Origin: Amphiscolops sp. MND2022
Taxonomy: Eukaryota
Length of the DNA stretch: 64,000 nt
Direction of reading: 5' to 3'
Assembly: GCA_964187785.1 (NCBI GenBank)
Contig: OZ076409.1
Location: 67,954,001-68,018,000, forward strand
Shown piece by piece: positions 35,801 through 63,109 of the stretch. Position 1 is the first letter of the stretch, and every line of letters starts with the position of its first letter. Made by a program: the position numbers and the translations under genes. The notes beneath the pieces were generated by a model, which had not been told where the DNA came from, ran no database searches, and worked only from the letters and a program-made list of their open reading frames with translations.

Positions 35801-35946
35801 CAACCCTTCAGAGCGTTGCGGGTTTCATGGTTTTACGTCAGAACTCAACCTCGAAACCTAACCAATTGCAGGAATACCACATTTGGGTATGTGCCAATCT
35901 CCACAAAAAAAAGCAATCCGTATATGAAACAAAACCTTGAATTGAT
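32890..35946 (-). mobile_element. CRE-clade (REL-endonuclease) non-LTR retrotransposon, decayed, copy 1
   Basis: PHD-like WVNCRLCKGWVHIK..FKCSRC, GGLRAIVVGNTFRRL, QVGVGTKRGAE, IDFENAFNS, WYLDGG, LPAEMGGLGV and RPDG..WDVTV (REL); 3' UTR ends gatatctgatagaggaaaaa. Confidence 0.85.
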
Positions 35947-36703
35947 TGTAACGGCAAGCGCTGAGCAATTGTATCGTAACATTGGAGTGGAGGAAATGGT
36001 ACCATGTATTTGGCCCGGGACAAACCACCATGATATCAGCTCACTTTGTCCTCCGGAGATTAGTCGGTCCCGAGGAGGGGAAACCGTCTCTAGGGCCGCT
36101 CTCTGGCCCGATACCAGACTGTAACTGCTAAAATTCACAGTAATTGTGCTTTCGTCTCACAACCACCGCGTAAATAGGTCATAAAAACAACAAGGTAGTT
36201 TAGAAATGAAATTCACCAGTGGGGATCTCTGTAAAAGCACAGCACATTTTAGGAGTAGCCCTCGAGCTAAAAGTTAATCGAAAAAATAGGACAATTACTA
36301 CAAAGTCCAGTTTTGGCGAAGTGGGTGGGCTAACGGGCGACATGGCACCAGCGCTCGAGCTAGGCACAACCCCCGGGCACGGGTACTGCAATCAAGCCGT
36401 CATGCTGCTTTCCGGATCAGTCCTGCAAAACAATGATTCAGCAGGCAAACACCGTGGATATAGGCACTTTTGCTGTCTTTTTTGACGTATTCGCGCTTGG
36501 ACACACGTTCTCTTTTTTGTCTCTCTTCGCGGGCCACCTCTTTTGCTGTTTTTCTATGATTTCTACTGACAGGTACTTTGCCGAAACTATGTTCCAGTGC
36601 TTGAAAATGGCGAATGCCGCCTAAAAAATGGCGAGACCACGTCAGTTTTGAACAAATGTTTCAACATTTGCCAAAATTTCGTTGATCATAAGATGACGTT
36701 ACA
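35947..36703 (-). repeat. 3' LTR
   Basis: TGTAAC...GTTACA termini; preceded on the minus strand by the PPT-like aagcccggggagtga; homologous to 54802-55512. Confidence 0.85.
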
Positions 36704-36978
36704 TCACTCCCCGGGCTTCTGGCTTTTCGTCCCCGGCAAGTATTGCAGGACCTTGTTCAGGAACAGGATGCTGCCTATGCTGTAGATACGTCTGGAAACA
36801 AGGACGAGTTCTTGTGAAACAGCGTTGCAAGAAAAGCGCCGTCTTGGATCCTATGAAATACTACCTCAAAACTTCGTCTTTCTACAAAAAAATTGTAACG
36901 GTTTTAGCACCAGTTCGAGAGCTAGGAGTTTTCAGGCGGCTTTTGCCGTTTTCAAGCACCATTGAAGGTGAAAACGTT

Positions 36979-37772
36979 TTCATGGTCAATACCATCTTAA
37001 AATGTTTTCCCCAATTTTTAAACTCCGTTTTTCTCAGTTTTTTGTAAAAACTTCTTTAACTGGGAGCGCACGAGCGCCACTACGGGAAAGAAAGTAGATA
37101 GAATGCACATGACTCAACGAAAGACTAGCAATTCGGTTCAAAGGACTTTTTCAATCGATTTAAAGGCTTTTTTTCGCCTTTAGGCCTGGAACTTCCTTTG
37201 GGAACACCGCTCGAGGAGTTAGTGGTGAAAAAAATGCGTTTTTTGGTTGCCTTCTGAACACTTGGTTTTAATTCAGTTCAAGCGCAGGGGGCAGTTGCAC
37301 TCTGAGGCCATACACCCACGGCATACTATCAAATAGTACTAACTAAATAACAACAACTAAAATTGCGCCATGGTCAATATTCATGGTCAATACCATCTTA
37401 AAATGTTTTTTCCCAATTTTTGAACTCCGCTTTTCTCAGTTTTTTGTAAAAACTTCTTTTACTGGGAGCGCACGAGCGCCACTACGGGAAAGACAGTAGA
37501 TAGAGTGCACATGACTCAACGAAAGACTAGCAATTCGGTTCAAAGGATTTTCTCAATCGATTTAAAGGCTTTTTTTCGCCTTTAGGCCTGGAACTTCCTT
37601 TGGGAACACCGCTCGAGGTGTTAGTGGTGAAAAAAATGCATTTTTTGGTTGTCTTCTGAACACTTGGTTTTAATTCAGTTCAAGCACAGGGGGCAGTTGC
37701 ACTCTGAGGCCATACACCTACGGCATACTATCAAATAGTACTAACTAAATAACAACAACTAAAATTGCGCCA
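36979..37772. repeat. Tandem duplication, 2 x ~400 bp
   Basis: Units start ttcatggtcaataccatcttaaaatg at ~36979 and ~37380 and are nearly identical. Confidence 0.9.
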
Positions 37773-37875
37773 ATTTAAGAGGTAGCTCCGATGTAAGGTA
37801 ACAGCAGTTTGGGCTAAGTTATGGCAGTTTCGTGGGCTATGAGCCCTCAAACTCACTGTTTTATTGGCTGTAGAT

Positions 37876-39021
37876 TCATTGTATAGCCGATTTGTGGCGG
37901 CTACAGGGTGAAACGTCTTTGGGTGGCGAGTTTCCGCTCGCCGAGGCTCGTCTGGATGGCACAGTAGTGTCCGTATCTGTGTCAATTGTCAGTCCACCGC
38001 TCGGGTCGACTAGTGCTGCGTTCGGTGTTAGCTCAGCGGCATGTTCAGCAGAGTGATCGGATATAACAGGCATAGCTGCATTTTCCCTGACTTCATTTAC
38101 CGGAGCCGCTTCCACAGTCCGTGGCTGCTCCAACGACATTGCCATTGTGGGGATTGGATTAGACTGCGGAGATTAGACTGGGGATTGTGGCGCGAAGATT
38201 CGTGAGAGCTCTCCATCAGCTCTGCTGGTGGCAGCTAGGGTCACGCGCTTGGATATCCAGCCTGTCTGTTTCCAGAGCCCGCAAGCTCTTTTCCATACCT
38301 CCAAAATGCTGATCTCTAGATTCAAACATTCCTCATCCCATTCGGCTCTTAGTTCAGGACCTAAGACGGAATTCACTACAGGCATGTCACCAGACATCGT
38401 CATCTTTCTTTGTGCAGGTTCGTACTGGACTGGAGCCATGCGATGGGAGAGATTACGTTTTCGTACTTGCGCGGCCACTTCAATCCATTGGTGGATGCGT
38501 GCGAAGTCCAGTTGTTGTAACTGGTGATCTAGGTATTCGTGCCCTCGAGCAATAGGGCGCGCGCGTGGGAAACCCACGGGCTCCTTCCAATACCGGTTGG
38601 GGACCTGGATGAATTTGAATTTGTAGTCGGCTCGGGCATTGGGACTACCCCTCAAATCAGCAATAATAATTTTACGCAGAGTTTCTGTGGACCATGGGAA
38701 TCTGAATGGTTGCCCCGGAAGGTCGACGGGAGCATTATACCAATTGGCTGGTCCGAATTCTCTTGGTAGCACAGTCGCTTTTTGCGTGCGGCCCCTAATG
38801 ACTCCGTTCATGTTTTACTCTGACTGCTGTTCAGTCTTGATGGCGGTGTAAGCCTGCGGCACCTCACTGCTCAGGAGTTCCTTGACAACGTTTTCAAAGC
38901 CCATGGGAGGACTATCTTGTAGATACGTGAAGATAGAAACTGTGGCTACATGCACAGCCATGGACACGGGTTTCGTCGGATATCGTAGCAGTCCTAAAGG
39001 TCCAAAAAATGGAAATAGCAC
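37876..39021 (-). pseudogene. Accessory ORF of unknown function (broken into 68/212/89-aa pieces)
   Basis: Consecutive same-strand ORFs with protein-like composition in GC-richer DNA inside the LTR pair; no motif recognised. Confidence 0.45.
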
Positions 39022-42000
39022 CGGGCAATGACTGGGACCAAGTCCTCAACTTCGGCCAATGTCAGGTCCGCTAGTTGTTGCGGCATGGGGAATTCCGCAT
39101 TCTCGCTGGGAAGCTCGATGGCTCGATTAAGGAGTGAGTGCGCTTAGTCCACTCCCACAAATAGGCCGGACGCAAAAACCAGCGACGAATATAAACAATA
39201 ATGTGGAGAAGCTCTCAGTTTCAGCAAAGGACGTTACGACTACCTAACGGAGTGTTATCGCGGGTAGTTGTTTTAGTTTTTTATAGGGGGCGATGTAGGC
39301 AAAATGATTATATTTTCAGGCTTTTCTGACCTCGAGTTGTCGTTTTTGATAAGAACCAATATGTTTCAAAGAGTTTTGAATTTTTCAAGAAGAATCGCTT
39401 TAGCAACGTAACAAACAGTGTTACAAAGGTCATTAATAAAAGTCTGATTTAATTAATAAAACCAACATATTTTTACTTTCCTAGCTTCATTTGTTCCTCG
39501 CCTAAAATTTCCTAGGTATCACAAAAATCGGGTTCGTTCACACAAAAACCCAGTTGATTCATTTTGTTTCAGTCCCGCGTCTGAAATTCAAGTATCGAAA
39601 TACCTCGTCTGGTCACCCTACCGTAATATTTGTTGAAATCATTTTTGTTCAAACGATACATTTCCTGTTTCAGCGTCAAAATGGGGGCAAAATGAGAGCC
39701 TGCTTGATGTTTTCATCGACGGAGGCACGCCGGCGTGATCAATTTGTCAATTTCCAAGTTGGGAGATCAAGTGCTCAAATCAAAACAAAAGTATGACTAG
39801 CAAAAATGACAGCGTAACTGAATCGGAGTTAAAAACTTTGAGATCGGAAACATCTGAATACTGATGAAAAGGAACAAATGATGCCGGAATAACAATTTCC
39901 AGTTTTTGCCATTATTTTCAGCACGAACATGAAACGACAGAAATTTATCTAAGCTAAACATACAATCACATAAAAACTAAAACAACGGAAACCTTTCCCA
40001 CCGAATTCCACACCTTGAAAAATGCTAATCAGATCATCTGTTTATAACATAAACACATTATTACTTCGATTGACAATTTCGATTCAATAGTATATATGCA
40101 GAGCACTCAATAAAAACACTGGTATGAAAGTCATCTGAAAGGAAGCATCCATTCATAAGAGGTTGTCCTTACGTTGCATTCTATTCTGTATAGCTTTGCG
40201 CTGTTAAAATTCGCTATGTAGTCACTCCGTACGTATTAAGATTAGACATAGCTGTAATTTGTTCCGTAATTGCTCCGTACGTATTAAGATTAGGCATTGC
40301 TGAGCGGTGGTTTACGGAGGTATTACGGCAAGCTCAAAAATCATTGCAATTCTCGTACTTGTAACGTCACAAAAATCATTACAAATAACAACGTATTGCT
40401 AGCATAGCTATCTTGATGGCGACACAAAAACTATTCTGATTAGTTCATCAAAGCAAATTCAATAGTAATCGCATTCAAAGCGATAACAGCCGGGAGCGAG
40501 CTGTGACAGGCCCACTCGGAAAGGAACGAAGGTTATATGCGGGTTTTTGTCATTTCACTTGTTTCTTACATCTAAGTGGATTGTCAATTTCCGAATAAAA
40601 TTCGTAGTCTTTTGGGTTCAGTACTTTCACTAACTGATGCACTGCAGGGCGTTCCCATTGTTAGCAAAACCAATGTGCGTTTTTCTACTGTGTTACACGA
40701 ACGTTCTACTATCGCATTATTCCTCAAGTTGGTCTGCAGATTCTCCCTTCCATTATTCTTTGTGATTCTTACCTTCATGAAATGGCCAGTTTCAATATGT
40801 AAGTCACAACTTAGATTTTCTGGCGCGCCGATTGAGAATCAATCATAGTCCCAAGACCTGGATTCCTGTCCCGTCGTCCAACGTCAGCTTTCCGTTCATG
40901 GAGATGTTCTTTCTGTCGTTGCTCAGTGTTATACTGACCCGTGTAAAATTGCTACATCTCGCTCGAGCGAGATAATTCATCCCTATTTTGGAATGAAAGT
41001 CACAGAGATTTTGTCTTTCATTTCTTTCTGTACTGGCTCAATGATCTGTGGGTGTCCTACGGAACATTTTCGGAGTTCTGTAACGTAGAAAACACGGTGA
41101 CAAGATTTGCTTGTGTTTGCTGGGTAGGCTTTCCTGCATTCATCAGTCGACAATTAGTTAGAAGAAATTTCCACTGTTTCCTGCTATCGATGGAAGACGA
41201 AGAAGTTGTTTCCACCACTGTTGCTGCAATTGGTTTCATCAGTGGGATCGAAACTGTATACAATTACTCCGATGATGGAAGTTGTACGTGTCGTTTCAGG
41301 TTGGTAAAATCTTTCTGACTTCCGTGGGAGTTTGAAATGTTGTTCTTTGGTGATCAGCCAAGTCAGCCTCACCCAATTTTCTGACTCGTCTGAATCCAGA
41401 TCTTCATTTTCAGTAACTAAACCTGGCACTTTCTTATCTGTTCCCGCTACACTTACGGGTGAATTTTTTTCTGGTGCTCTGGGGTTGCCTCCATTTTCCT
41501 CCACTGTCTTGATTATCATGTCATGCAGTCGTTGGTTCAGCGTTCTCAGTTGGGGACGAATTTAGTGAAAAAAATTGAAGAAACCGTGATCCGTTTTCCT
41601 GGAAAAGGTAATAATTACACGCACTTTTTCAGACCACAAAAACATGGTCAATGTTGGCACAATTTGTGAAGTTGAAAATCAGTGACTGACTGCTCATTTT
41701 CGAGATCAAAACGTAACAGTAATCGTTCCATTCCAAAGTAACCTTTTTACGTTTTCCGTTCGTTATCTCTTCTCGTTCCGGGTTCAGATTGAATTCGGCT
41801 GTTCTCCTTGCTTCTGTTCTGTTCCAGTGGAGCATCTGTTGTTGTTGATTTGGTCGTTCGTGGAATCGTTTTGACTCCTGTCACCGTGTTCGACTACCAC
41901 ATATATACTAAAACAACGGAGACCTTTCGGTCAGCAAATTCCACACTTTGAAAAATGCTAATCAGATCATCGGTTTATAACAGAAACACATTATTACTTC

Positions 42001-42719
42001 GATTGACAATTTCGATTCAATAGTATAAGTGCAGAACACTCAATGAAAACACTGGTATGAAGTTCATCTGAAAGGAAGCATCCATTCATATGACGTTGTC
42101 CTTTCGTGCACTCTGTTCACAAAATCTTTGCAATTCTGCAATTCCTGAGGAAAATTGATACTTAATTGTGTTCAATTCCCTAATTTTGTAACTACAATCG
42201 TATAATTGCTCTGTAGTCGCTCGGTACGTATTAAGATAAGGTATAGCTTTGCACTCTTACCATTCGCTCCGTAGGCTATCACCTCATTTGCGGTCATTAG
42301 TTCGAGTGTGTCCGTGAGTTTCTTCACTTGCGTACGACTCAAATTGAACTCGTCGGTTACCACATCTAAGTTCCAACCCAAGCCGAAACCCGTCAATAAG
42401 GCTGGAATGATGACAGACAGCGCTGGGAGGGTGACCGTTGCAAGCCGGTCTTGATACCATTCACCATATGTGATCTCGCGGGCTTGTATGGTCTGCTCCA
42501 AGGTCACGGCCTCATGTGCTACGATGTGTCGTTAGCCTAAGGGTAGCTTAATGATCTCTGTGTTTTCGGCGAAGTGAATTTGAGGGATTGTACGTTCTAC
42601 CTCACGACTTGCTGGCCATCTGCCGATCTGATCCCACAATCGGCCAGGTCCGCCTTTACAGTGGTGGGGGTGGTCTCATGGACCAACCTGTTATATCGGC
42701 GCATGTTTTTGCGCTCCCG

Positions 42720-44363
42720 TTAGGTGGCATCGGGAAGGAGGCGGTTGCCTTCTTCATCACATGTGAGACGACCCAGACGCATGCCGTGGTCATAAATGAT
42801 GGCGTCGTCCCATGTCAATTGCGCTTTGCCATTTCTTTCTAGCGTCTGCATCATACGGGATACTGCTGCCAGGTTTGCATGAACCCCGACAGCGCTGCTG
42901 GACGCAAATCGTTTTGTCCAACGCACAGGTTGAGAGCCCACACAAAAAATTCGATGTTTCTTGCCATGCAGACTTCGCTCAGCATGTACACGAAATTCTG
43001 TAACGCACTTCCCTAGTACAACATGCCTGGAGGCGACACAAAAAGAACGGGAGTGCTCAGCTGTGTGCAAAGTAGTTCTGCTGTTCTTTCCATTGCTGTT
43101 GCAACTTGATGTAATACTCGTGCCACTTCATTCCTGGCTGCCTCGCGATTAGGCATTACGCGCAGTATCCTTGGTAGGTCTTGTAACAGACCCTCACAGG
43201 CCATGTGGTCGACCAAGTTGGTGAAGATGAATCGCTTGGGGGTGGCTCCTCCGCTATCTGTGGCAGACAGGCAAGGGGCATGGTAACCACCAATACGTCT
43301 GGCACGATGTTGTCCATTGGTAGGTCACATGGGACCGTGGAGTCTATCATTACGCAAAATCGCGTGCGCTGTATCAAAGTCTTGGGTATGTGCTTCAAGG
43401 ATTCCAGACTCCGGGGATACACACTGTGGGTCTCCCAGGTCTCGCCGGCTTGTAAGGAATGTCTTGCATTGAATTGTGCGAGCAAGTTGTTTTGCATAAG
43501 TTGTAGATAGTTGTCATGGGCGAGCGCCAGTCGTGCTAAAACGCGCTGTTCCTATGCCTGCTCGCCAATGTCAACGTCAAAGGAACGAAGTGTTCTCGAC
43601 AAATGAGCCACTATCGATTTCTCAATTGCGCATGATCCGCACCGGAAGGAGGAACACGCTGTCGATCTCTGGACTACCTATCCGACATTCGTGGGGCCAC
43701 CTGCCGGATTCGATGTGCATCTCTGGTCACCAGCGAACCAGCAACGTCTTTTGAAGGTGGATAGTACAGCGGGACCTTAGTTGCCGTTCTCTCCGTTGAG
43801 GCTGAACTGGAGGACGCGGTGTTTGCTGTGCCCTCGATCACAGAAGAAGGGCTGGGAGCGTAACGTTCCATCACTTCACTTATCCAAAGTTGGTGCTCAG
43901 CAACTCCTTGGAAGCCCATCTTCGGGAGCTCTGGAATTACTACTGAACGTGGCGCGTTGTTCCGTTTGTCGGGAGGAGGACGACTAGTCGGACTTTCACT
44001 CGTACTTGCCGCTCCCGTTAGTTCGTGGGGTGAGACTCTTTCACGCCCATGCTCTTCATCTGAGACCGGCGACATCTCTTGGATTGGAAATAATGCACAT
44101 TGTGTTGTACTGCTGGGTCCTGGACCTTGACTGGTTCTTGTCGACATACAGCCCTCGAGCTGTAAAGGCGTGTCAATCAATGATTGCAGGCCAGGAAGAC
44201 TGCGAGATACAGTTTCCATGAAGCCTCTGGACTCTGGATAGTTGGCTACAGCTTGCAAGGCTTGAATTACTGCTTGCTCGCTTGGCGTTCGGTTAGTCAT
44301 GTTGGAGCTATTAGTGGGCGGGTTAAGGGAGCACTGAAGACTGTACCGATTGTACTCTAACAC
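42720..44363 (-). pseudogene. Accessory ORF: low-complexity N-terminus plus SGNH-hydrolase-fold-like domain
   Basis: Across frameshifts: FCVMIDST...VLVVTMPLACLPQIAE...PKRFIFTNLVDH...VLFVSPPG...LSEVCMARNIEF...NDLRP. Confidence 0.45.
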
Positions 44364-45241
44364 TGGATACCTGACTGGAGCTCGCGAGCTCTAAATTTGA
44401 GGACGAACTGGCACTGTGCAGTATCATGTGTGGTGCCTGTACAGCGGCGGGAGCACTAGCATAGTGTGTTGGGTGCCACTGAAGCGAGTGTGGGCACCAA
44501 TTGCTGCTCGTTTGGCAAGTAGACTGATTGAGGTTGAGGTTGTGGTTGAAATACCATGTAGGCCGGTGGCAGTTGCTGGGTTGCCTGCACGCTAGAAGGT
44601 ACGCGTAGCGTAGCCCCTGTTCAAACGTGGTTTGCGTGTTAGGGCCATAAACTACAGTACACCGGTCATCCAGGAAGGGGTGTGTCAAATCGTAGCTATC
44701 TCATACTCCATTGCGGCAGGTCATAGTACGCTTGTACCCAGCTACGTCGGCTACAATTGATACCGCCATACTCTGCAACGTGGTCTGCGACTCCAATTGG
44801 GCCAACAAGGCAAAGATACCGGCCATTACGTAGCCTTTCTTCGATGAACTGTACTTGATTGGTACGCTGCACTAGAGCAGCGTCATGAATTGGTGCGGTG
44901 CTAGCAGGCACTGATGAAGAAGCTGTGTGATGGTAAGCTATCTTATCATTGGTGTAAAAACAAGTACTCATCAGACCTGCTTCGTCTCATAAACTCTTAG
45001 GCAGTAAAATGAAAATTGTGAGCTCCTTAAGGGAGCTCGGTAGCTACCAACGGTCAACGTTACATTACGCAGTAGTAAGTTATGGGGAAACTGGTTAGAT
45101 ATTAGCTATCATTACTTTGTATTTACACGTAGAGATACTGCAAATTGAAGGAAGCGCTTAAAGCACTTCTGAAGTTACACAACATAAACATGAGACATGG
45201 CAGAATTCCTGCCGGTCATGGTACCAATATCTGAATTTGTT

Positions 45242-46532
45242 CTATGGTAGTTCATTGCCTACCTCAATGCCCAAAATAAGCCCATACACGCCAATTTGTG
45301 TTCCCACAAATAGATCCATCATCAATTGATATAGGTTGGCCAAAGAGTGCACTGGCCTTTCAGGATCCAGCGTTGGAACGAGAAAACTAGAAATTCCCCT
45401 GTCTTCAAGCCACGCTATCAACTTCTCCAAACAGAGTAGAAAGTCCTCCACTATCGGCGGCGCACGCTGATTTGCACGGGTTATCATTAAGAGGATTGCT
45501 TGAGTTGGTATATTCGTGATCGAGGGAGTTAGCGTTAGTATTTCCCCCACTTGCGGACGGAAATAGAACCCTTGTTCCTGGCCACATTCACGCAGCACAT
45601 AGCGCAGCGCGATCAAATAGTCTCCAAGTCTGCGGGGCATGCCAAGGCAATGTGACCTTCAGCTTGCAGAAAACCGGTGGTTTCGTACAAACGGTATTCC
45701 ACAATGTTAGGACTTAGAGTGCATGGGTAGACAATTTCTCGTCCAGATCCGTTGTCAGGGTGTAGGCACACACGTGGGGTACGATCTTGTATCGCAGCCA
45801 CATCTTGCCATACGGAACGTGGCAACACTTGATTGTCCACTTTCGCCCAGACCCATGTGTCCAGCGTGCTCACCGCTGCCTTAACCTGCAAGGGTTTCTC
45901 GCATGTGTGGGCCCAACCATCTAATAGTGAAATTCGGGAGTAGTTGACAAAGCACGTGATGATCAATTCGTCCAACCACCAGCGAAACTTCACTTTACCC
46001 CTATACCAATCGATAAGGTGGAAGCATAAAATTAGCTCTTCCGTGGTGGAAGTCCTCAGACTTTCCAAGCATAACAACAAGTGCTGTGGGTTTATTAACG
46101 TATCGACGCGTGGAGCAGTCACCAATAACCACCGGTGAAGGGCGGGTCAGTAGACGCCACCAGGCTCGACTTCTACCCGTATCGGTCGAGCAGCAGGTCA
46201 GCAGTAATGCACCTGGCCATTTGCACTGGCCCTCGCTCGAAATTGAACAGGCCAAACACGATGTTAGGGGGAACTGGTGGAACTACCGTTGCTAGCGTAA
46301 ACTCAAGGCCTTTGCCATCGCTCGTACATTCTTTGAATCGGGGACAGCGCGCTTTGGCTACACCTGGTACTACAACTTGTTGTAGGATTATCTGAGCAGA
46401 GTGGTTACCGGTCCTTTCTACATCAGCGAAGGTCTTTTCCGCTCGTACAACAATGCGGTGAACTAAGTCCTCGTTCTGTCGTGTTTCCGGGACTCGCCGG
46501 GCTCCAATGGGAACCTCCCGGTTCTCATTCAC
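45242..46532 (-). pseudogene. Accessory ORF with C-terminal TARG1/OARD1-like macrodomain
   Basis: HIALACPADLETI/ALRYVLRECGQ..RPQVGEILTL..AILLMITRANQRAPP..DFLLCLEKL..RGISSFLVPTLD..LYQLMMDLFVGTQIGVY follows the macrodomain pattern LAHCVSADL..VG.V..IYYLITK..P..L..L..MP.I..VF..I.VY. Confidence 0.6.
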
Positions 46533-47419
46533 GGCTAATATGCAGACGCAGTCGCGTAGACTTTTTGTTCCATATTTGTAGCGAGACCATCATTTTTGCC
46601 TTAGTTGATACCGTGAAGCTTGAGACTCTGCCTGCTTCTCCCTCGGAATCGAAGTTACATCTCTAGCATTTCTAGCCGGAACTTTCCGTTGACGCGACAC
46701 CCGCGTTTTCTTTCGAGGTCTCCCACTCCCCTTTTGGAAGAAGGAGCGGTTGGTTACTTAGGAGCAACCAGAGCAGTATCGTTGAACGAAGGAGATTAAG
46801 GGTGCGACAAGGACATGTTAGAGACCTCACCTTGGTTAGGCCATATAGGATAGTTGCTGAGGCAATCAGTGAGGGAAGGTTGAATCAGCAATGGGGCAGA
46901 CGTACCAACCAAGGATTGCTCTGGTGGGTTGTCTGAGGGCGACAGTTGTGGTGACGGTGAGCAGGCGAGCTCGTGGTCAGAAAACAGTTGAGGTAGGCAA
47001 TCGTTAAAGGAGATGTCAGACACAGGATCTGGGGGGTCTGGATCCAACAGGTGGGTCTGGAGGCAACGTGGTTTGGTCCAGGTCCTGTGGGTTGGTGGGA
47101 ATCGGGAATCCGGAGCATGGCCCGGGAAGGTTCATCGCCTGTGTTTGACGTTGAGTAGTCAAATTGCTGATAATGTAATCGTTAACCTCCTGCGCGTAGT
47201 TTAGTACAGAGTCCCGTATTCATCCAGTGCCGTCGACGGGAGGGCAATGATACATTTGATGCTTCTGAAATTATTTGTTCAGATTTGTAACAGGGTTGAG
47301 ACAGGTCATCGTTTATAGGTTCAACAGAGCGCTCGGGCTCCGGATCCATGACGACGGCGATTTCGCCAGTGCCAAGGGGGGTAGTGGCGAACTATGTTGG
47401 GCCACTATGATTCAGTTTA

Positions 47420-50400
47420 AGACGTTCAAAGTGCACTTTTTGCCCAGTGTCTAAAATGTAGACACGGCTTCTTGTAAAACATGAGCAACACATCGGGGGC
47501 CGCGCCAAGCGCCCATCAATTTGGGAGAACCTTTTTGTTGAACATATCGACAAAAAACCCAAACTAAATAGCCGTGCTTGTACGCTTTGGCAAGAATGGC
47601 ACGATCGTATTTGAGTTTTTGACGCAACAGAGCTTGGTGAGTGTTGCGACGTACTAAGTCATGAATTTCTTGTTCGCGTGCCAACATGTGGTCCATGTAA
47701 GCATCATGAGTTGCAAAAGATTGAGTCGCAAACTCAGGGAAAGGTACGTAAGTGGTATTGCTTTCTCGGTACCACGCGTCAACACGTGGGGAAAAAACCC
47801 TGTTGTTGCGTGTGGGGTGGGGTTGTATGCACCAAGTACTTCATCAAGGTGTCTATCCCAGTCGCGCATTCTGCAGAAACATAACACTCGCAGTAACGTC
47901 AGCAACGTGCGGATCTGACGCTCCACCAATCCCTGGGTGCGCGGGTGAACCGCGGTAGAAGTGACCTTGGTGACTTGCGAGGCCTTCATGAACTCGTTCG
48001 AGACTTCGGCAATCAAACTGGGAGCGTTGTCGGATTGCATGCGCGTGGGCGTGCCGTGTCGGGCAAACCATTTTTGAAGCAGCAGACAAGACGTGGTTGA
48101 TATCGTCATACTCTTTGTGACTGCAAGGTACAGCCTCAGCGAATTTGGAGGAGTGGTCAAAGATGACCAAGATTCCCGTATTGCCATCAGAGTGGCACAG
48201 CTTCATGTGATCATATTGGACCAGCTCGTTGAAGTACCCACTCTGGATGTTCTTGAGATGAAAACGGACGTCGCCAGGTTTATCTCGTACTTACTGACAA
48301 GTAAGGCATTGACTGACGTATTCTCCTACAGTGCGACGAATCCCTGGCTATGTGTGGCGTTCTTGGATACGTGCAACAACTTTGCTGATGCCTTGGTGAC
48401 CTATAGCATCGTGTGCACGAAAAAGAATCTCATGCTGCTACAACTCGGGCATCGCAATCTTGCAAGGCCGTTCATGCAATAGTCGCTGCGATAGAGGATA
48501 TTTCGCAGAGAGAATTCCGTTGGAAATCAAGTATAGTAATTCTTTTTTGTTTGAAATAGTTGCGGGCAAAAGCTCGCACATCCTCCGGAAAGATGTCTTG
48601 TTCAATGTCTTCGTTCTCAACCAATTTTGTAAGTGCCAAGACGTGAACGTCTCGGTTCTGGGCTAGCACTAAATCCATGAATCCATGGACAGTGTGGGAA
48701 TGCTCAAGAAGTTCGGTGCCAAGTCTTCGAATAGCAAGCACTGCCTGCTTGACGTTATTGGGAGCTTTTTGTAACACAGTTCCACTGGCTTCGGCCAGCG
48801 CGTAGGTTGTGCGTCACGCGACATTTTTCACGTGGTTCGGTAGCAAGTAATCGCGGCTTGCTTCTTCGGTTGCATCTATCCAGTCTTCGGGATAGTCTGG
48901 ATAGAAGTCTTCGTGTGCTGTAGTACAGGTGGGGGAGGCAGCGGTAGTGGTGCTTGCCAAACCTCTTTCTGTTTTTCTCGTAGTTTGGTCCGCTGTGTGC
49001 GACGAAAAACTCGTTGAACCGTGTTAGGAGCGGTTGGTGAAACTAGGTGCGATGGCAAGTCAGGATGGTTTGGTTTTACTCGGCCTTGCACGTCAAACCA
49101 TGGTGCGGTGGGCAATCTTTCATTTTCATCCTGAGACAAAAAGTTCCAGCGTTCAGCTACAGTTGGTAGCTTTGCTAGTTGTTGTTTGCGGCGTCGATAA
49201 TCAATATTCCGTTTAGACAAACCATCGGCATTGCGATGTTGTGTTCGCGGTCGATGTTCCACGGGAAATGGTACTTTTCAATTGCTATTATCCATCGACC
49301 AATGAGAGCCTGATCGGTTGAATAAGTTTTCAACCACGATAATGCTTGGTTGCTTGGTTGCCCACTCCTAAAGTGAACTCTCGTGGACATAAATAGCTGT
49401 GATTTTTGACGATGAAATGGTGCGCGGCGTACATCTCCACTTTGGGAGCTCCATATTTTGCCTGCGTAGCAGTCAACTTCTTGCTGCCGTAGACAATGGG
49501 TCGGAGACGTCTGTCCCCTGGAGGATCTTGCTGTTAATGCAGAATACCCGAATTGGCCACGACGCTAGCATCAGTGTCCAGCACAAACTCGACTTCTGAG
49601 TCTGGCTTTGCGAGAGCAGTTGCCTCAATTAGTGCCTTCTTGATTTCATTCAAGGCCTGTTGCTGTTCAGACCCCCACATGAAGGTGGCAGTCACGCCAG
49701 TGATGGTGTGCAAGGGAGCACCAAGTTTGGCATGCGATGGAAATAATTCACGATAGTAATTGGCAAAGCCCTGAAAGCTTTGCATCTCTGTTTGGTTGCG
49801 GGGAATATCCCAGTCTCGCAATTTTGCCACAGCTTTGGGGTCAGCCTTTATGCCCTCTGTTGACACCACTCGACCCAAATATATGATTTCGGATTTCTTG
49901 AAATCACACTTGGCCGCTCTCGTTTTGAATCCAGCTTCACGCAGACATTCGAAGACCTCGCGGAGACGCACCATGTGGTCTTCCACTGTCTCGGTGGCTA
50001 TTACGATATCATCGATGTAGGCCATTACCATGTTACCTTCTCGATTAACAATTTTGAGTAGCGCCCGGGCTATCGCTCTCCGAAAAGTGGCGGAAGCATT
50101 AGACATGCCAAAGGGCATGCGTCTTCACTCGAAACGTCCTAGCTCGAAAGCAAATGCGGTCTTTTGGCTGTCAGCCTTTCTGACGAGGATTGCCAGAAAG
50201 CCCAGGCCAAGTCAATGCTGGTGTAGATTTTGGTTTTACCCAGCCTGGCCAGACTTTCGTCGATGCCTGGTAACAGGTAGGCGTCTTCGACTGTTACCTC
50301 ATTCAATGGGCGGAAGTCACAACAAAACCATAACTCACCGTTCTTTTTCTCGACCAAGACGATACCGTTGGCCCAAGAGTTCAGTGAGGGTTGGATTATT

Positions 50401-53055
50401 CCAAGTGCCAGCAGGTTGCGCACTTCCTGGTTGACACGTGCTGCTTTTTCAGGAGACTCGCGCCTGTCACTTTCACGGTGTGGCACAGAACCTGGTTCTA
50501 TATCTACCGGATGTTTGGCTATGGTGCATCGACCAATACAAGCTTTATGTTTCAAGAATAAGTCATCAAACTCAGTTAGGATGTTTTCTGAAGAAGTGCT
50601 GGCTTCGGAACCCCGTAAGTTCTTCACCTCCTGTAGCTGCGAGTCTGGTCACGGAATGGGAGCCATTAGCACTGGATCAAGGCAATTCCGCTTTCCCCGG
50701 TCTGAAAGGCCTTCCTCAGTACGATCTGTTGACGACAAAAACTCAAATTCTGATGACGAAGGTAAGTCTGATGCGAGTCAGTACTGAGATTATCTTCCTC
50801 ATAAAAATTATGAACAAAATCAACATGGTCTTTATTGACATCAGTTTTTGGTTTTGGGTTTTCCACCCGCTGGGGTATAGCTTGGTACACTAAGGGTACG
50901 GGTACCACAGTTCCCAAGTGGGTTTTGCTACGGAAACGTTGGGGGTTGCTCGTGAGGTTTATCACGCTGATAAAGACATGGCCTGACTCACTGACAGTGC
51001 CGACAGTCCTCTAAAAACATAACATTTTGTAGCCACGCGTCCACGAGCGCGGCGTTCAGCACTACATTTTGAAACACTAGTGGTTCCGAATTGATAGTGA
51101 CCACATTCGCTTTCGCGGCAGTGCGTTCAAAGGGTTGCAGCACCAGGTCGCTGTCTAGAGCGACGGGAACTGCTAAAGAAGTATCACCTACCTGGGTGTG
51201 GGCGTGGTGCCAGACTGGTTGAACTGGTGCGCGAACCACGATCTTCATCGATGTTAGGTCAACGAGGACCTGACAGGTTCGTAGAAAGTTGCGGCCTAGT
51301 AAGAAGTCCTCGTCTACTTTGCGTCATCCACCACTACGAAGCTTGTCTCTAGCTCGTACAGTCCTAATTGGAAGCGCACACGTTCCGCCGTTTTAAACGT
51401 TTTATTGGTTTTGTCTTTGGTTTAAAACTTTGGTAGGGTGTTAACACTGCTCCAGTCTGGATAGCGACTCGGTCAAAATAGACACTCCGGAACCAGTGTT
51501 GATCAAACCTCGCAGAGGGATCGGCGCCCCTTGGGGCACGATGAAGGAGACGACGAGCGATGCACGCTCGTCTATTCATGCTTTGCCGGTTGGTTCCTGG
51601 CGATTGATGTTGTAGCATTTAATCCCTCGTGGCCCCAGGCATTTCCCAGGAGAAAATACGTCCACTACTACGCATGCCTTGAACTTCACGTCGACGCCAT
51701 CCATCGTGGAACAACTGGGCACTGGAGAATACGTGGTCAATGTGTCTGATTCTCCTGGAACATACCATTCCTTTGGGCGATTAAGTTCTACTCTCTTGTA
51801 CAAGATGGAGAGTTTGACCCTGAGTTTGGCAAGGGTTACTGTCGGACGGCGCAGCTGCTCTGCGGCCAACACCAAGTGGATGGATATGAACGTTTTCGGG
51901 GTCGAAGGTCGTTGGCTCTAAGTGCGTTTGCACTTGTTTGGCACCGAAAGTTATAGTGAGGTGTGTACAAAATGCGGGTGGTTCCATGGAGTGGAATATC
52001 AACACGCGGTCGTCTTCTAACGGCACAGTATGGGCATCTGCACCAGCTGCCTCAACTTCCGCCCATCGGCCTTGAGCGAAATCATCACTCACAAAGTTTT
52101 TTATGCATTGTGAAGCCACGTGATCTACTAGACCACAATTGACGCAAAAGCGGACCCCGGAGCTATTCGCCACGACGTCTTCAGTAGTGGTTTTTACAGC
52201 TTCGGGCTCTGGCACCACAGCGGGTTTAGGAGCCTGATTCCGGGTAGGACAATCTTGGACAAAGTGACCCCTCTAGCCACAATTGAAACAGGCACATAGC
52301 GGCACGCGCACTGCTGGTGGTGGCGCCGCTGGGTTGGCAGATGCATTACTCAGAGGAGGTGGAGGAACTACTGCCTGCGGTAAGACCATTTTGTTTGGTG
52401 GCAATGGTACAAAAGGATGAGGCCTCGACCTCATGGCGTAGCGGGGATTATAGGGTTGTGAATGTTTGGGCCGCTTACGCTGTAGTTGCCGGGTGGTGAA
52501 TCGCAAAGATTCTACAGTGGGTGGGTCAGTTACGGTAGTTTCTGAGGCATAGATGATGAATAGTTCCCGTCGCAGCGTGGCGTCACAGACACCCTCAAAG
52601 AAGCGTTGCAGGATTTCGTAACGCTGGGTAGCGACGGGCGCATTAGGGAATCCCTGACTACGGAGCCCTTCCAAGGCGTGCAGGTACTGCATCCAGTCTT
52701 CTTTTTCGAATTGTTGTCGAGTGGCAAAAGCTCCAGTTCCAAAACGACTGACTAACAATTCGAATACCTTTTATTGCGTGTGTTCAGACTTCCAAGTGAC
52801 TAATGATGCTCGAAGCTCTGTCATCTGGAATCGCTTTGGCTTGCGTTCGTTGCAGATAACGGCGCAAGACCAGGATCCAGCCATCAACGGAACCTTCTTT
52901 TCCCCCCACTTTTCGGGTAAGGTATTCAGGTACTTCCAAAGAAATTTCGAAAAATTTGCCTTTTTGCACCTCTTTTTGTGCAGTACGTTTACGCTATTTT
53001 TCAAAAAATACTGCACCGATTGGCACGAAATTTGGTATGCGCTGCCAGTGAGCAA
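47420..53055 (-). pseudogene. Gypsy gag-pol (gag, 2 CCHC, protease, RT, RNase H, integrase), many frameshifts
   Basis: CFNCG*RGHFVQDC and CVNCGLVDHVASQC; LINTGSGVSIL and LLGRNFL; PFGMSNASATF and AYIDDIVI; LDTDAS; MQSDNA, HPRTQGLVER and WRGP. Domain order PR-RT-RH-IN. Confidence 0.95.
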
Positions 53056-54801
53056 CCAACAATGCTGGTTTAATGGTCCTATGAAAGCCCGCGAGCTTTC
53101 CTAGAGTTTCGACTGAGTACAAACATTATTTTGGCAAAAACAGTCTTTTTTGATACTTTTTTCACAAATTCGCTAAGAGGGTCGACACTACAAGTGTTAT
53201 GACAGGCAATGTAGGGTCAACGTGCTGCCCCACTACTCACAGCACTGCTGCGAGCCTTTAATCTGCCGTGCCCGTTAAGTAGGAGGCACTATCGGTCTTA
53301 CAGTTTTGGCTTTTTTCGGTTATTTCAGCTCTTTTTGATGTCAACACGTCAAAGAGTTTTTTTTCAATTTTAGTTAGTTCTAGTCTCATCAAATTTTAGG
53401 CTATAGCGTTTATTTTGATGGTGGTTACGAAAACGCAACCTATTTCCAGCTAGGGTTCAGAAATCAATGACCCGATCCTAACAACTAGACAGTCCGGTTT
53501 TGTGAATTTCTGGTCAAATTCTGTGCGTTTTTCCACTTTTCTCAGCACTGAATAGGCATTTTTACATGCGGTTATCATCACCACACGTTAATTGTACTAC
53601 AAAAAAAAGAAGAAGAGAGCGCACGAGCTCTCTCGTACAGTCTAAGGTTGCCTCTGCAGAATATTTTTATGTACTCTACAGGGTCCAAAAACGGCCAAAA
53701 TTACAAGACTTTTGCTTATCCGCGGCTTCGGGAGCAGCTAAGTTTGCTACAAAAACTAATTCATGTGCTCAAGGGTTGTGTTTGGCTCGAAAAATCACTT
53801 TACAACGGTCTCCCTCGCTTTTACACCAGGTTGCACCTGTGATATTGGGTGATTTTTTGCCAATGTTTCAACTTTTCGCATTTTTCACCTTAAATCACGT
53901 CTGTTGTACCTAAAAGAGCCACGGGAACAGTTTACCTTCATTTTTCCTGACTCCCTCAGGGCTCGAGGCTACTTTTGCCTAGTTTTAGCAAGGCTACGTT
54001 GGACTTACGGAGCACTCGTGCTCCAACCAAGGAAAACACCGAAAGACACGAAAAATTGCTGCTCTTTTTGCAAAAAATCTGTTTTCTTCGCTCAACAGCG
54101 CTCCATAGGGTGTCGTTACATTACAAAAAAGTTTCACTGACATGGCACCAACGATTCCGCAGAAAAATTTTAAAGTTTTCGCGAATCTTGACCCATCTGA
54201 GCGATACTTTTGGTCAAAGGGGAAGTGCCTTCGCCACGCAATTTGTCCACATCCAGACCAGCTAGAGACTTGCGGTTTGAACCGTTGGCACCGTCAGCAC
54301 TTGCACTCGCAAATTTCGTCCCTCTCGGACGTCTCCTCGAGAAAGAGGAAACAACGAACCATAGCACTCCTTTTCGTACCCCTATCGCTGTGGTGGAGTA
54401 TGGCATTTCCTCCATCAGCAACTGTCTTGCATGACTCAAAAAGCTGAAAATGGCTAGAAACACCTGTTAAACATCCGTAGCCACGCGCTACGGTAACGAT
54501 TACCTGCAAAACATGTACCCGCTGATGGGTTAACACATCCCAGCATCACAAAATACGCATTTATTGGTTTTACGGCCCGAAAATGCCATAATCACACCTG
54601 AAAATGTATCTTTCCTTGTTTTTCTGGGTCCATTCCGTTCCAGCTTCCAAGAATACTTGCAGTCGTTAAACAAGAGGTAAACTCTGGCTTCTCCTAGGAG
54701 TTGAAACTAGGCGCTAAACACCAGTGGGCTAGATTTTTAATAACCATGCAGGAAAGCTTCCCAAAGGCGATTCTCTGTTGTCGCCAATACATGATGTTCC
54801 A

Positions 54802-55512
54802 TGTAACGGCAAGCGCTGAGCGATTGTGTCGTAACATTGGAGTGAAGGAGCTGGTACCATGTATTAGGTCCGGGACAGACCACCTTGATATCAGCTCACT
54901 TTGTCCTCCTGAGGATAACCTAGCCCGAGGAGGGGGAACCCTCTCTAGGGACGCTCTCTGGCCTGATACAAGTCTGTAGCTGCTAAAAATCACAGGAATT
55001 TCGCTTTCTTCTCACAACCACTGCGTAAATAGCTAAAAAAACGACAAGGTAGTTCAGAACTGAAATTCACCAGTAGGAATCTCTGTAGAAGCACATTGTA
55101 GGACTAGCCCTCGAGCTGATAATTAATCAAACAAATAGGATAACTACTACACCAAAGTCCAGTTTTGGCGAAGTGCTTGGGCTTCCGGGAGCATGGCACC
55201 AGCGCTCGAGCTAGGCACAACCCCCGGGCACGGGTACTGCAATTAAGCCGTCATGCTGCTTTCCGGATGTCCGTCAAAACCATGATTCAGCAGGCAAACA
55301 CCGTGGATGTAGGCACTTTTGCTGTCTTTTTTGACCAATTCGTGCTTGGACATACGCTCTCTTTTTTGTCTCTCTTCGCCTGGTAACTCTTTTGCTGTCT
55401 TTCTATGATTGCTGCTGACAGGTACTCTGCCAAAACCATGTTCCATTGCCACGTCAGTTTTGAACGAATTTTTCAAAAATTTGCCAAAATTTCGTTGATC
55501 ATAGGATGACGT
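54802..55512 (-). repeat. 5' LTR (outer end disrupted by a MITE-like sequence)
   Basis: Starts tgtaacggcaagcgctgagc like 35947. Colinear with many substitutions and indels; breaks at gatgacgt a few nt before the expected gttaca. Confidence 0.85.
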
Positions 55513-55625
55513 GGGAACAAGACGTTTCGGCGACAGACGTGTCATTGGACGTTTCGGAGACAAAGTGGCGCCGAAACGTCTATTAACAGGGTGGGAGGAA
55601 AACCGTCGCCGAAATGTCTCTTCGT
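55513..55625. repeat. Small foldback/MITE-like repeat (gacgtttcggcgac / gtcgccgaaa(c/t)gtc)
   Basis: Two forward and two reverse copies of the motif. Confidence 0.6.
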
Positions 55626-57113
55626 AGGATGGGTGGATATATGAAGATTACAACATAAATTATCAGGAAACTTGGTTTTGCAAACATCATTTAGATGATA
55701 TCATTTAATAAGTATAAAACGTGCCTCGGATATGTCCCCATTTCCTCTAGTGCCCCGCAGCCCCTTGGGGCCGCTTATGTTCCCATCTTGCTAAGCGAGG
55801 TCGAAGGATTCGGATTCAATTCTGGATCTGAATGACAGTTTGGAATCGAAAATAAACTTATGGTACCTAGACGATGGAAATTTAAGTGATGATTACCGAA
55901 CCGTTCTGAAAAATCTCAAAAAAAATTGTTGAAGCGGAAAAAACGCTAGGACTCAAAATTAAACCCACGAAATGTGATTTTATCCCTGGTGACATCGCTG
56001 AAAAACGACGATCGACAAGTTTAACATTTTTCCAAAAACTTTGCCCCGGGATCAAAACAACAAAAAAAGATGAACTTATCATTCTTGGTTCACCGCTCGG
56101 CCCGAAATCACAAGCAGACTTATTGGAAAAGAAAATTAATGAACTGGAAAAAGTTAACGGAATTGTTGGAAAACTAGATGCGCTCTATGGTTTTTTTGTG
56201 TTGAAAAATTGCTTCAGTTTGCCGAAGTTGTTGTACTTCCTGAGAACCAGTACATATTTTAATTATCCAGCTCTCTTGGAGAAATATGACAAAACCGTGC
56301 GCGACGGGCTCTCCAAAGTCTGTAACGTGAACGTCGACGATATTTCGAGCACTCAGCTGGCTCTGCCTGCTGCTGAGATGGGTGGTCTTGTGGTTTCATC
56401 CGCATCTTTTTTAGCACTTCCGCCTTTTTTGGCCTCAGCTTTTTTTGGTGCAACTGACTTTCTCACGACGATTTTCTCGGAAACATTCGAAGATGTTTCA
56501 TTTACAAAAGCGCTTGAGAAATAGTTGAGTTTGACGAATGAACAGGAAAGTCCTCTCGATGAAACCCAGAAAAATTGGACACAACCTGTCTTCGTCAAAA
56601 CCGTCCAAGATTTGATTTCTAGGATGGACGACAAACGTTTGAAAGTTTTCAACGCTCATCAAGGTAAACTCGGGTCTCAATGGCTGAACGTCGTTCCTTG
56701 CAGGAATTTAGGCCTGAAACTTGATGGTCAGCAACTTCGAATTCCAATTGGCTGGCGTCTCGGTGCCAACATCTGCGTTGCGCATACGTGCCACTGTGGT
56801 AAAAGAGTTGAACGGGACGGTTTACACGGTCTTTCGTGCACCATGTGTTCGTTTCTCACGTCATGCTACTCTCAATTCTCTCATTCAGCAGACGTTGGGA
56901 TCTCTCGACTTCCCTTCAATGCTCGAACCACGTGGACTGTACCGAACTGATGGCAAACGCCCAGACGGTGTTACCATGATTCCTTGGGAAATGGGTAAAC
57001 AGCTGGTGTGGGATGTCATAGTTGTGGATGCTCTTGCACCCAGTCGCCTGAATCAAGGCTCTTTATGCAACCGTGGAACCACCGCCACCGAGGCTGAAGC
57101 GCGTAAAATTGAG

Positions 57114-57618
57114 GGAGTGTACGCATTTGATCTAATTGCTTGGGTCTAATGGAATTAGATCTAACTGTTAGGTCTAACTTCCAGATCTAATTTTATCTAA
57201 AATACTTAGGTCTAACCCCTTTATGATCTAATATGTGTTCTGAAAGCGAAAATATAATGTGGGGCATATGCGATGTATGCACGCTTGTCCTTACCGTCGC
57301 AAAGACCAGCTCCCGCTACGATCGCTTCGCGATCTCCGTTCCCGCTAGATCTTTGCTCCTGTTCGACCTCGCTTAGCAAGATGGGAATATAAGCGGTCCC
57401 AAGGGGCCGCGGGGCACTGCAGAAAATGGGGACATATCCGAGGCACGTTTTATACTTTATATCTCTTTTTAGTTTTAGATCCTAATTGACTTATTTTTTT
57501 CTCAAATTAGATCAAATAAGAAGAGCTTTTTAGGCCTGATTATTTAGATCAATTTATTTAGATTTCAAATTTGCCCCCTCTTTTACATCTATTTCATTAG
57601 ACCTGATTCTACGTAGCT
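57114..57618. mobile_element. gatcta/ggtcta-rich MITE-like insertion in CRE copy 2, itself containing a nested repeat
   Basis: Interrupts ARKIE/KYRE and is flanked by aaaattgag / aaaatgag. Its 57360-57455 segment is an inverted copy of 55705-55805. Confidence 0.65.
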
Positions 57619-57992
57619 AAAATGAGAAGTATCGCGAATTAATAGACAAGGGATACATTTTTCAGTCGGTGGCCTTGGAAGTACAGGATTCTTTAGGCGA
57701 GAGCTGTGAAATTTTCATCACGTGTTTCTGTAAAATGCTCTGTCGTTCGCACGACGATTAACGAGCCGGCAGCTTTTTGATGCAACGGATTTCAATGGTT
57801 CTTCAGATCGGCAATGCGGCCTGTGTTCTGGGAACTGTGAGCGACAGAGATGCGTTCGAAGAATTTTATTACATATAACCTAATTTTTTTACCTTTATAT
57901 CATAGCAGCTTTAAAAAAAATTCTTCCGGTCGACTGCATAAACGCTGGTTTGAGTAATTGTCGGTTGTTTTTTTTTGTTATTGGTATAGTGG

Positions 57993-61347: not shown

Positions 61348-61637
61348 GTATGACGCAAATCCCTGGTTGTCGCAGAAGGCCACTAGAGAAATACTTGTAT
61401 CCTCCTTGATAGAACCTTTGTTATACCCTTAATCGGGTTCCAAATTGTATTTCAAAACCTCACAACATGCGAAATATTCTCAATTTTTTCTATTGCAAAA
61501 ACTAATTTACATCGTCTCAACTTGATACTTAGTCAAAAATTCTGTAATTTAAAGAAAGTTTGTTTTTAGTGATGTTAAATAGCAGTTTAGCAAGAACTGG
61601 TGAGCTAAAACCCTGCCAGCTGGTGTTTCAAGACTTA

Positions 61638-62117
61638 TTAATATTTCTGCTTTAGCAGGAATGTTATTGTAACCTCAAAGTTGGTCCTTTTTTTTTTCAG
61701 TCGTCAAATTTCGTCCTACTGAATAATTCAGATATTTTGTTCGGCAGTGAGTGTAAGCGTGGGAAAGCTGCCGACAACAATTCAATTCTAGTGCGATAGA
61801 ACGAGCGAGTGGTAATTATCCATTCGTATGCTGACGTCATTGAGATGAAGCGAATGAGTGTTAATTATTCGTTCGTTGAGAGCTTCGCCTGCATTCAAAT
61901 GCGAATGCGAAACTTCGTCTACGCTTAGTTATATTTTCTTTAGTCCGAGAAGAATTAAAGGCGGTGTAAACTTGTACAGTGATTAATTGTGCTCTAAGTA
62001 ATGATTAAACAGGAGTGTATTGGTATTCCAGATATGATTCTTTTATTAATGATTTTTTGTTTTAAAAAAATAAAGATTAAAGCAGAAATAGTACTGAGCC
62101 CCGGAGGGGCCTATTTT
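61638..62117 (+). mobile_element. HINE-like family C, copy 1
   Basis: Subterminal IR atttctgcttta / taaagcagaaat, adjacent partial IR agcaggaat, and 3' hairpin gccccggaggggc followed by T-run. Confidence 0.7.
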
Positions 62118-62379
62118 CATAGTAAACCGCATCCTTCAGCGAAAATTAAATTCGGTTCAAAATGATGCATCGATGTTTTTTCTGCACATATTTAACATGG
62201 GAATGCAACGCGTTCAACCCCTCCTTAAGTTTTGCTGTTTCAATTTGATACTCAAAAGTTCTTCCACAATATTCTACGAAGTGCAATTTTGATCCGTATA
62301 TGTATCGTAAGATATTTGAATTTTTTTCGTAAAAATATGAACTAAAATATAAATATTACTAAAATGATTTTTCCCGTTT

Positions 62380-62858: not shown

Positions 62859-62986
62859 ATGCAATTTTGTACAAGTTTTGAAAGCTTCCGTGAGTATGAA
62901 TACCCACATAGTTAAATGACAAACTACTTTGCTACTTAACATGGAACAGTGTCTCAGAAAGAGCCAAAAATGTGAAAATGTTGTAG

Positions 62987-63109
62987 ACAAAGATGAATGT
63001 GCTTCTAACAATGGTGGCTGTCAGACAGTGTGTACTAACACAGATGGCTCTTTTAATTGTGGCTGCAGCACCGGCTACGAGGTTCATCCCAATGGGTTTG
63101 CATGTATAG
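62987..63109 (+). CDS. Calcium-binding EGF exon of the same gene
   Basis: tgtag|AC...ATAG|GTGAG, phase 1-1; [41 protein letters not shown]. Confidence 0.9.

Follow-up and report, generated by a model that had tools for sequence, protein, structure and literature searches.

The window analysed here, a stretch of 64,000 bp (positions 67954001–68018000 of contig OZ076409.1) in the 1.07-Gb genome of Amphiscolops sp. MND2022, contains on its minus strand a decayed long terminal repeat (LTR) retrotransposon at 35947–55512. It probably represents a degenerate copy of an 18–21 kb Ty3/Gypsy element with TG..CA ends and a 3-bp target-site duplication (TSD), whose Gag-Pol polyprotein ends in a TARG1-like domain and whose second open reading frame (ORF2) encodes a protein of about 1,435 residues with an SGNH fold, both of them likely acting as non-catalytic binding modules. 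We regard the architecture of the element as very likely correct, and the binding functions of the tail and of ORF2, which draw on structural models, as tentative. The linkage of the parts, the two-ORF layout, the 3-bp duplication and a tRNA-Arg(UCG) primer binding site (PBS) 15 nt from the LTR are directly observed in copies of the lineage. New here are the 3-bp TSD combined with TG..CA ends, the offset tRNA-Arg PBS, and an apparently conserved splice acceptor in front of ORF2. Each of the captured folds has precedent; the 3-bp footprint outside the Troyka group and the offset PBS are the unexpected part.

Linkage of the accessory DNA to pol and the LTRs

The original prediction, made from the window alone, described a cargo-bearing, virus-like Gypsy lineage with its own auxiliary gene set, and named accessory blocks unlinked to pol or LTR in other copies as the outcome that would speak against it. 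When the genome was searched with three accessory blocks (42150–46600, 40500–41900 and 37800–39100), the first and the third hit a common set of loci, with about 315 bp between them; the second matched a different set. At 14 of 20 loci, picked by their accessory matches, pol and the accessory blocks occurred in the order seen in the window; the remaining six were truncated or internally deleted, with accessory DNA still beside an LTR. LTR, pol and accessory DNA, in this order and with TSDs, were found together in other copies, and the prediction passed this test.

The relatives, the less decayed of which were found by protein searches, were loosely grouped into families S (closest to the window copy), Y and T. 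Over 180 residues of reverse transcriptase (RT), S and Y share 96% identity, and both are 80% identical to T. Full-length units measure 18–21 kb, many with LTRs 98–100% identical, and in 7 of 13 groups examined LTR pairs of this identity lie 18.4–19.3 kb apart. The lineage thus sized belongs to Ty3/Gypsy, has a high copy number and was active recently. Independent insertions stacked between two solo LTRs would be an apt description of one block, 39229–42274, but as an explanation of the whole span they have a negligible probability in view of the collinear copies, the TSD-bounded full-length units and the continuous ORFs; the copies form a coherent, cargo-bearing giant Gypsy lineage.

The block 39229–42274 belongs to a separate repeat family, the best matches of which are other loci and not copies of the Gypsy element. 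Its core matched only one of 78 element stretches, in a segment of 132 bp that lies outside that element, and two other loci carry the repeat in tandem. An ORF formerly assigned to the element at ~41519–40850 lies inside this repeat and has to be withdrawn. The repeat has a unit of ~2.8 kb, forms head-to-tail tandems elsewhere, gave >1,000 candidates at first look, and is devoid of a long ORF. Some loci of the Gypsy lineage are deletion derivatives which keep the LTRs, the leader and the ORF2 region and have lost most of gag-pol.

Structure of the copy in the window

The LTR pair with TGTAAC/GTTACA ends and the polypurine tract (PPT) directly beside the 3' LTR, both noted previously, were confirmed; the 3' LTR (35947–36703) comprises 757 bp, and the 5' LTR (54802–55512) lacks its first 6 bases, which were looked for upstream and not found there. 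Because its two LTRs are only 89.1% identical (705 aligned columns), the window copy is considered to be old. Pfam matches to parts of a zinc knuckle, RT, RNase H and integrase verified gag-pol on the minus strand, while none of 14 accessory fragments of the window matched any Pfam family.

Three lesions occur in the window copy alone: a gag deletion of ~2.3 kb at 52900/52904, where other copies have 2.1–2.4 kb more; a 402-bp tandem duplication (36979–37772) in the 3' untranslated region (UTR); and the foreign repeat of 3,047 bp at 39229–42274, which took the place of ~190 bp of ORF2. The DNA between integrase and 3' LTR amounts to 10.7 kb in the window copy, and subtraction of the nested insert and the 402-bp duplication leaves ~7.4 kb of native DNA instead of the ~10 kb of accessory DNA first proposed. 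The span of 19.6 kb masks the gag deletion.

Same-strand coding relics do occur between integrase and 3' LTR; however, they derive from two proteins and not from four or five separate accessory ORFs. The relic 46532–45242 maps to the Pol tail (46736–45245), and the relics 44971–44323, 44363–42720 and 39021–37876 all map to ORF2 (44941–42274 and 39227–37879). What stands of the proposed auxiliary gene set is one accessory ORF and an in-frame Pol tail. Decayed copies inflate accessory gene counts. The features of the window copy, in the 5' to 3' direction of the element, are as follows.

54802–55512 (-): 5' LTR, first 6 bases lost, adjoined by another repeat (LTR alignment)
54769–54786 (-): tRNA-Arg(UCG) PBS, decayed; a 15-nt spacer (54787–54801) separates it from the LTR
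52904–54768 (-): extended 5' leader; next to it, the junction left by the ~2.3-kb deletion that took the gag start
47390–52900 (-): gag (CCHC), protease, RT, RNase H and integrase (GPF/Y-type motif), disrupted by numerous stops and frameshifts (Pfam; mapped relatives)
45245–47390 (-): in-frame C-terminal tail of Gag-Pol with low-complexity linker, Cys motif and macro-like region (mapped open-frame relatives)
45915–46235 (-): probable first macrodomain, very degenerate (secondary structure; comparison of the tail halves)
45260–45700 (-): predicted TARG1/OARD1-like macrodomain, end of Pol (model of an open-frame relative)
44954–44975 (-): putative branch point plus splice-acceptor-like motif ahead of ORF2, with damage in the window copy
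42274–44941 (-): 5' part of ORF2, approximately residues 1–924, broken (mapped open-frame proteins)
42830–43370 (-): ORF2 domain with predicted SGNH-hydrolase fold; retains Ser and Asn, with changes in the Gly and His blocks
39229–42274 (no strand assigned): unrelated ~3-kb repeat, nested here and arranged in tandem at other loci
37879–39227 (-): 3' part of ORF2, approximately residues 987–1435, with a conserved hydrophobic segment (mapped open-frame proteins)
36979–37772 (no strand assigned): 402-bp tandem duplication, 3' UTR
36704–36713 (-): PPT, adjoining the 3' LTR
35947–36703 (-): 3' LTR, TGTAAC..GTTACA (LTR alignment and family termini)

LTR termini and target-site duplication

Neither a PBS nor a TSD had been recognized in the window copy; both were established from other copies. 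In the window's family, 30 LTR loci yielded 18 solo LTRs with both ends readable (five others were end-damaged and seven were joined to internal DNA), and 17 of these 18 are flanked by an exact 3-bp TSD, none by a duplication of 4–7 bp. The Y and T families contributed 20 testable insertions from 60 loci (14 pairs and 6 solos), 18 with a 3-bp TSD and none with one of 4–7 bp; the corresponding count for shuffled flanks averaged 1.3, with a maximum of 8. Both misses are tandem units with a common LTR, and for one of them a 3-bp match is obtained when the whole array is considered. Overall, 35/38 insertions show a duplication of 3 bp and 0/38 one of 4–7 bp, and of five older paired copies, four are consistent with 3 bp. 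A 4-bp TSD masked by shifted termini was ruled out, since the flanking positions are not fixed. Young tandem elements with a common middle LTR occur at C2:4362373–4399836 and at further loci; the outer flanks of this C2 array consist of one 3-bp duplication.

The TG..CA ends, the PBS and the PPT are as expected for Gypsy elements, whereas the TSD of 4–6 bp, which is a typical trait rather than a phylogenetic definition of the group, is absent. Kojima (2025) described Troyka as the LTR group with 3-bp TSDs, other LTR retrotransposons having 4–6 bp, and used the 3-bp TSD as one mark of a separate superfamily (PMC12440569). Troyka elements also have a single Gag-Pol ORF with the same domain order and an animal host, so that membership of the present element, which would make its 3-bp TSD an already known trait, had to be considered. 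It appears highly improbable. Troyka is characterized by CG..CG ends, a CX2CX8-10HX4C knuckle, the lack of GPF/Y, LTRs of 100–400 bp and an internal region of ≤7.7 kb, with no extra ORF described (PMC12440569), whereas the present lineage has TG..CA ends, CX2CX4HX4C knuckles (and none of the CX2CX8-10HX4C type), a W-x-G-P-H motif, LTRs of ~720 bp and an internal region of 17–20 kb, failing all five features. Moreover, the best match of its RT in the PDB is Ty3 RT (E 1e-66, 228 bits; next family, 155 bits). Because TG..CA ends accompany its 3-bp TSD, the lineage is not assigned to Troyka; the occurrence of this TSD together with TG..CA ends and Gypsy motifs implies that such a footprint probably has two separate origins and is not sufficient by itself to classify an element. 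A literature search, with Repbase, subscription papers and the Troyka supplements outside its scope, retrieved no TG..CA Gypsy element with a 3-bp TSD; an excerpt of PMC10045372 gives "3-6 bp" for LTR elements, the group not being named.

Primer binding site and splice acceptor motif

Over its 18 nt, the PBS of families S and Y is perfectly complementary to the 3' end of a host tRNA-Arg(TCG) gene plus CCA, and the primer of the sister family T is tRNA-Lys(TTT) (anticodon UUU). Usual spacers between LTR and PBS comprise a few bases. In the present elements, 36 of 37 S/Y matches, a few of which come from loci that overlap, place the start of the PBS 13–16 nt past the LTR, and in 5/5 T copies the distance is 16 nt. 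Self-priming of the Tf1 type was dropped because the tRNA match is exact; folds of seven sequences also revealed no consistent pairing of the spacer. The pattern of tRNA-Arg(TCG) has 272 matches in the genome and that of tRNA-Lys(TTT) 644, in large tandem arrays spaced ~173 and ~193 bp, respectively; arrays of primer tRNAs are located at C9:57.54 Mb and C7:5.22 Mb.

Ahead of ORF2, 21 of 28 copies have a branch-point motif together with a T-rich AG motif, as compared to 2 of 325 control windows. From this motif we infer a conserved splice acceptor, suggesting that ORF2 may be expressed from a spliced RNA.

Gag-Pol and its C-terminal tail

One T copy contains a single frame of 3,204 codons extending from gag through integrase to ~700 residues beyond it, and the S and Y copies have the same tail in frame with integrase. 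Protease, RT, RNase H and integrase follow gag in this order, and W-R-G-P-H, a variant of the GPF/Y motif, is present after the integrase core in all three families.

Searches with the tail sequence were uninformative: 0/58 tail homologues matched any Pfam family, Macro included, searching the PDB by sequence gave nothing meaningful for the accessory proteins, and homologue searches returned only unnamed proteins. Structure comparison of the open-frame ORFs, which had been suggested as a check, was more productive. In a model of the last 402 residues of an open-frame relative (mean predicted local distance difference test, pLDDT, 67.6), residues 248–392 match human TARG1 with a Foldseek E of 1.7e-9 and a VIA Z of 16.9 (141 aligned residues, root-mean-square deviation (rmsd) 4.5), at 11–12% sequence identity. 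The comparison agrees with a macro fold, the ESM Atlas gave a Macro lead at 0.90, and the tail is thus predicted to end in a TARG1-like macrodomain.

The ratio of nonsynonymous to synonymous substitutions (dN/dS) is 0.09–0.11 for the tail and 0.10–0.12 for ORF2 in all three measurable pairs, which are those of family T; the four other accessory pairs have reached saturation at synonymous sites (dN 0.12–0.44). These sequence comparisons indicate purifying selection on both ORF2 and the Pol tail.

ORF2 and its predicted SGNH fold

Copies with open frames carry one ORF2 of 1,426–1,456 residues, 190–290 nt past the Gag-Pol tail, and in the most distant family 30 of 85 matches lie in stop-free frames of 1,431–1,451 codons. 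Within a model of residues 440–1300 (pLDDT 67.9), a domain at ~523–712, comprising ~190 of the 1,435 residues, is predicted to adopt an SGNH fold (VIA Z 11.2, 181 aligned, rmsd 3.5), the top rows all being members of the SGNH family. Pfam did not assign any family to ORF2 or the tail of open copies (GDSL was absent from 11 proteins), the ESM Atlas had no match for the SGNH region, and a longer fused form of ORF2 was not present among 5,314 candidates, which is a weak test.

ORF2 occupies the position of env and is preceded by the putative acceptor, as might be expected for an envelope-like or cell-to-cell spread protein of an infectious virus. A hydrophobic 19-residue window (Kyte-Doolittle value 1.7–2.3) is located near residue 1020–1065 in 7/7 ORF2 proteins, and a spliced leader could supply a signal peptide. 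Nevertheless, such a role is improbable: judged without a dedicated signal-peptide predictor, the N-terminus is not hydrophobic; cysteines are few; the hydrophobic segment is proline-rich; and in place of a fusion-protein fold, for which PDB and viral libraries gave 0 matches at E<=0.001 (the C-terminal part of ORF2 being poorly modelled), the SGNH fold was obtained. In line with the earlier remark, no env-like layout was seen in the hydrophobicity profile of ORF2, and the infectivity that "virus-like" might imply is not supported.

Catalytic residues of the captured folds

In the SGNH domain, the Ser of block I is kept in 21 of 24 and the Asn of block III in 30 of 32 sequences, but block II is without Gly, and at the position inferred from motif order for the His of block V, Arg occurs in 29/34 and His in 2/34, so that the catalytic His appears to be replaced by Arg. 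In the tail, Arg is found in 47/49 sequences at the putative position of the catalytic Lys of TARG1, and the glycine-rich ADP-ribose loop is presumably gone; judged by motif order, the catalytic motifs have apparently been lost.

Alternatively, the extra domains of the same element might be active enzymes, namely a non-canonical esterase operating with Ser and Asp-His, and a macrodomain which erases host ADP-ribose marks as a counter-defence. The conservation of Ser, Asn and Asp-His across families only 24–25% identical, the fact that the best fold match of the tail is the hydrolase TARG1, and the catalytic residues retained by the GDSL ORF3 proteins of rotifer Vesta elements (PMC5408684) would all be compatible with activity. 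However, the replacements by Arg, the missing Gly and glycine-rich loop, and the lack of Pfam Macro and GDSL matches in 58 and 11 proteins, respectively, render active enzymes unlikely. In our preferred reading as binding modules, two captured enzyme folds have been maintained by strong selection in families that share only 25% identity, although their catalytic sets appear to be missing.

Comparison with known elements

The lineage shares with Ty3/Gypsy elements (Metaviridae) the TG..CA LTRs, tRNA PBS, PPT, gag–protease–RT–RNase H–integrase order, CCHC knuckles, a GPF/Y-type motif and an RT nearest to Ty3 among solved structures, but differs from them by its TSD of 3 bp instead of 4–6 bp, the PBS 13–16 nt off the LTR, the length of 18–21 kb, the Pol tail of ~700 residues, and an ORF2 of 1,435 residues that is not env. 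Vesta of bdelloid rotifers likewise has an SGNH/GDSL ORF3 downstream of pol in the env position; it keeps S, G, N and H, whereas the His and Gly blocks are altered here, and the excerpt of PMC5408684, which also discusses esterases in ORF1 of non-LTR elements, does not mention a macro tail. Planarian Burro and plant Ogre are very long as well and possess extra polyprotein domains and accessory ORFs, but in Burro (>30 kb) the protease is preceded by BIR, BCL2, MATH and env-like domains, Ogre owes its length chiefly to its LTRs, and the present lineage falls below the 20-kb internal threshold of the review describing them (PMC6431247). Capture of a macro fold by an LTR element is also known from fish epsilon-like endogenous retroviruses (Retroviridae), in which macro is a separate ORF, whereas here it is fused past integrase (PMC4977317). 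Among proteins of known structure, human TARG1 (PDB 4J5S) has the macro fold predicted for the tail, the catalytic motifs of which are apparently lost; the OSK domain of Drosophila Oskar (PDB 5A4A), an SGNH fold without the catalytic set, was among the structure matches of the ORF2 domain (Z 7.5, 7% identity), a likeness that is regarded as analogy. No Gypsy element with a macro-plus-SGNH layout was found in a literature search that had Repbase and subscription papers outside its scope; the excerpts of PMC10741241, PMC12905397, PMC9911081 and bioRxiv 2021.11.30.470311 contain nothing on this element, and PMC11673190, as excerpted, describes another lineage.

Proposed mechanism

In the proposed life cycle, a full-length RNA would give rise to one Gag-Pol-tail polyprotein, and tRNA-Arg would prime reverse transcription. 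The cDNA end would then bear the long 15-nt spacer as an overhang, to be removed before joining, and integrase would join the TG..CA ends with a 3-base stagger. The macro tail, which is in the position of the chromodomain of chromoviruses, may tether the integration complex to chromatin or to repair proteins. ORF2 would be translated from a spliced subgenomic RNA and might act as a cytosolic scaffold. The OSK domain of Oskar binds RNA; by analogy to it and to non-LTR ORF1 esterases, the dead SGNH domain may, while particles assemble, bind membranes or the RNA of the element. As a more speculative extension, which we consider possible but rather doubtful, the elements might constitute a new clade, the second independent LTR lineage with a 3-bp TSD, within Gypsy, combining the 3-base stagger with trimming of a 15–16 nt overhang, an ADP-ribose-reading tail and an Oskar-like RNA granule scaffold formed by ORF2. 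If so, LTR finders demanding duplications of 4–6 bp would miss it. With this lineage, a natural integrase is at hand in which the determinants of the stagger and the processing of a long PBS spacer can be studied.

Several observations weigh against parts of this account. The TSD of the window copy itself is unreadable, its outer 5' LTR end being lost. A first, stricter acceptor pattern was not above control (10/28 vs. 19/83), and the second pattern was written after the sequences had been seen, in copies that are related to each other. The nearness of RT to Ty3 is a ranking among solved structures. Residues 55–180 of the tail model resemble a second, more decayed macrodomain ahead of the TARG1-like one, but the halves of the tail match each other weakly in hhalign, with E 0.0013 and a probability of only 18.6. 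For the SGNH domain, Foldseek probabilities of 0.96–1.0 are accompanied by weak E values (best 0.089), and the predicted template modelling score (pTM) of the ORF2 model is 0.47. The catalytic equivalences in both proteins were drawn from motif order and not from superposition, and an invariant Asp-His after the block III Asn could form a non-canonical active site. Finally, ~550 helical C-terminal residues of ORF2 are without an assigned fold, and the Z score of Oskar is within the range of a common arrangement.

Neighbouring features in the window

The Gypsy element is flanked by two decayed non-LTR-like copies at 33019–35824 (-) and 55809–57992 (+), mutually inverted and 82–87% identical, in which Pfam recognizes a PHD finger (E 0.0008) and which also have a motif presumably of the restriction-like endonuclease type. 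A short repeat (55513–55640) abuts the truncated 5' LTR, and a 96-bp inverted repeat pair (55710–55805/57362–57457) encloses part of the non-LTR copy. A gene of a TRPM-family channel with SLOG and TRPM2-like domains is located at 5335–8138 (-). The region 17617–28343 (-) comprises a pair of exceptionally long open frames, of 2,279 and 1,091 codons, without Pfam match, which look like a large, nearly intron-free host gene, tentatively SZT2-like. A near-perfect direct repeat of 741 bp, with a third, more diverged copy, is present at 61635–63818.

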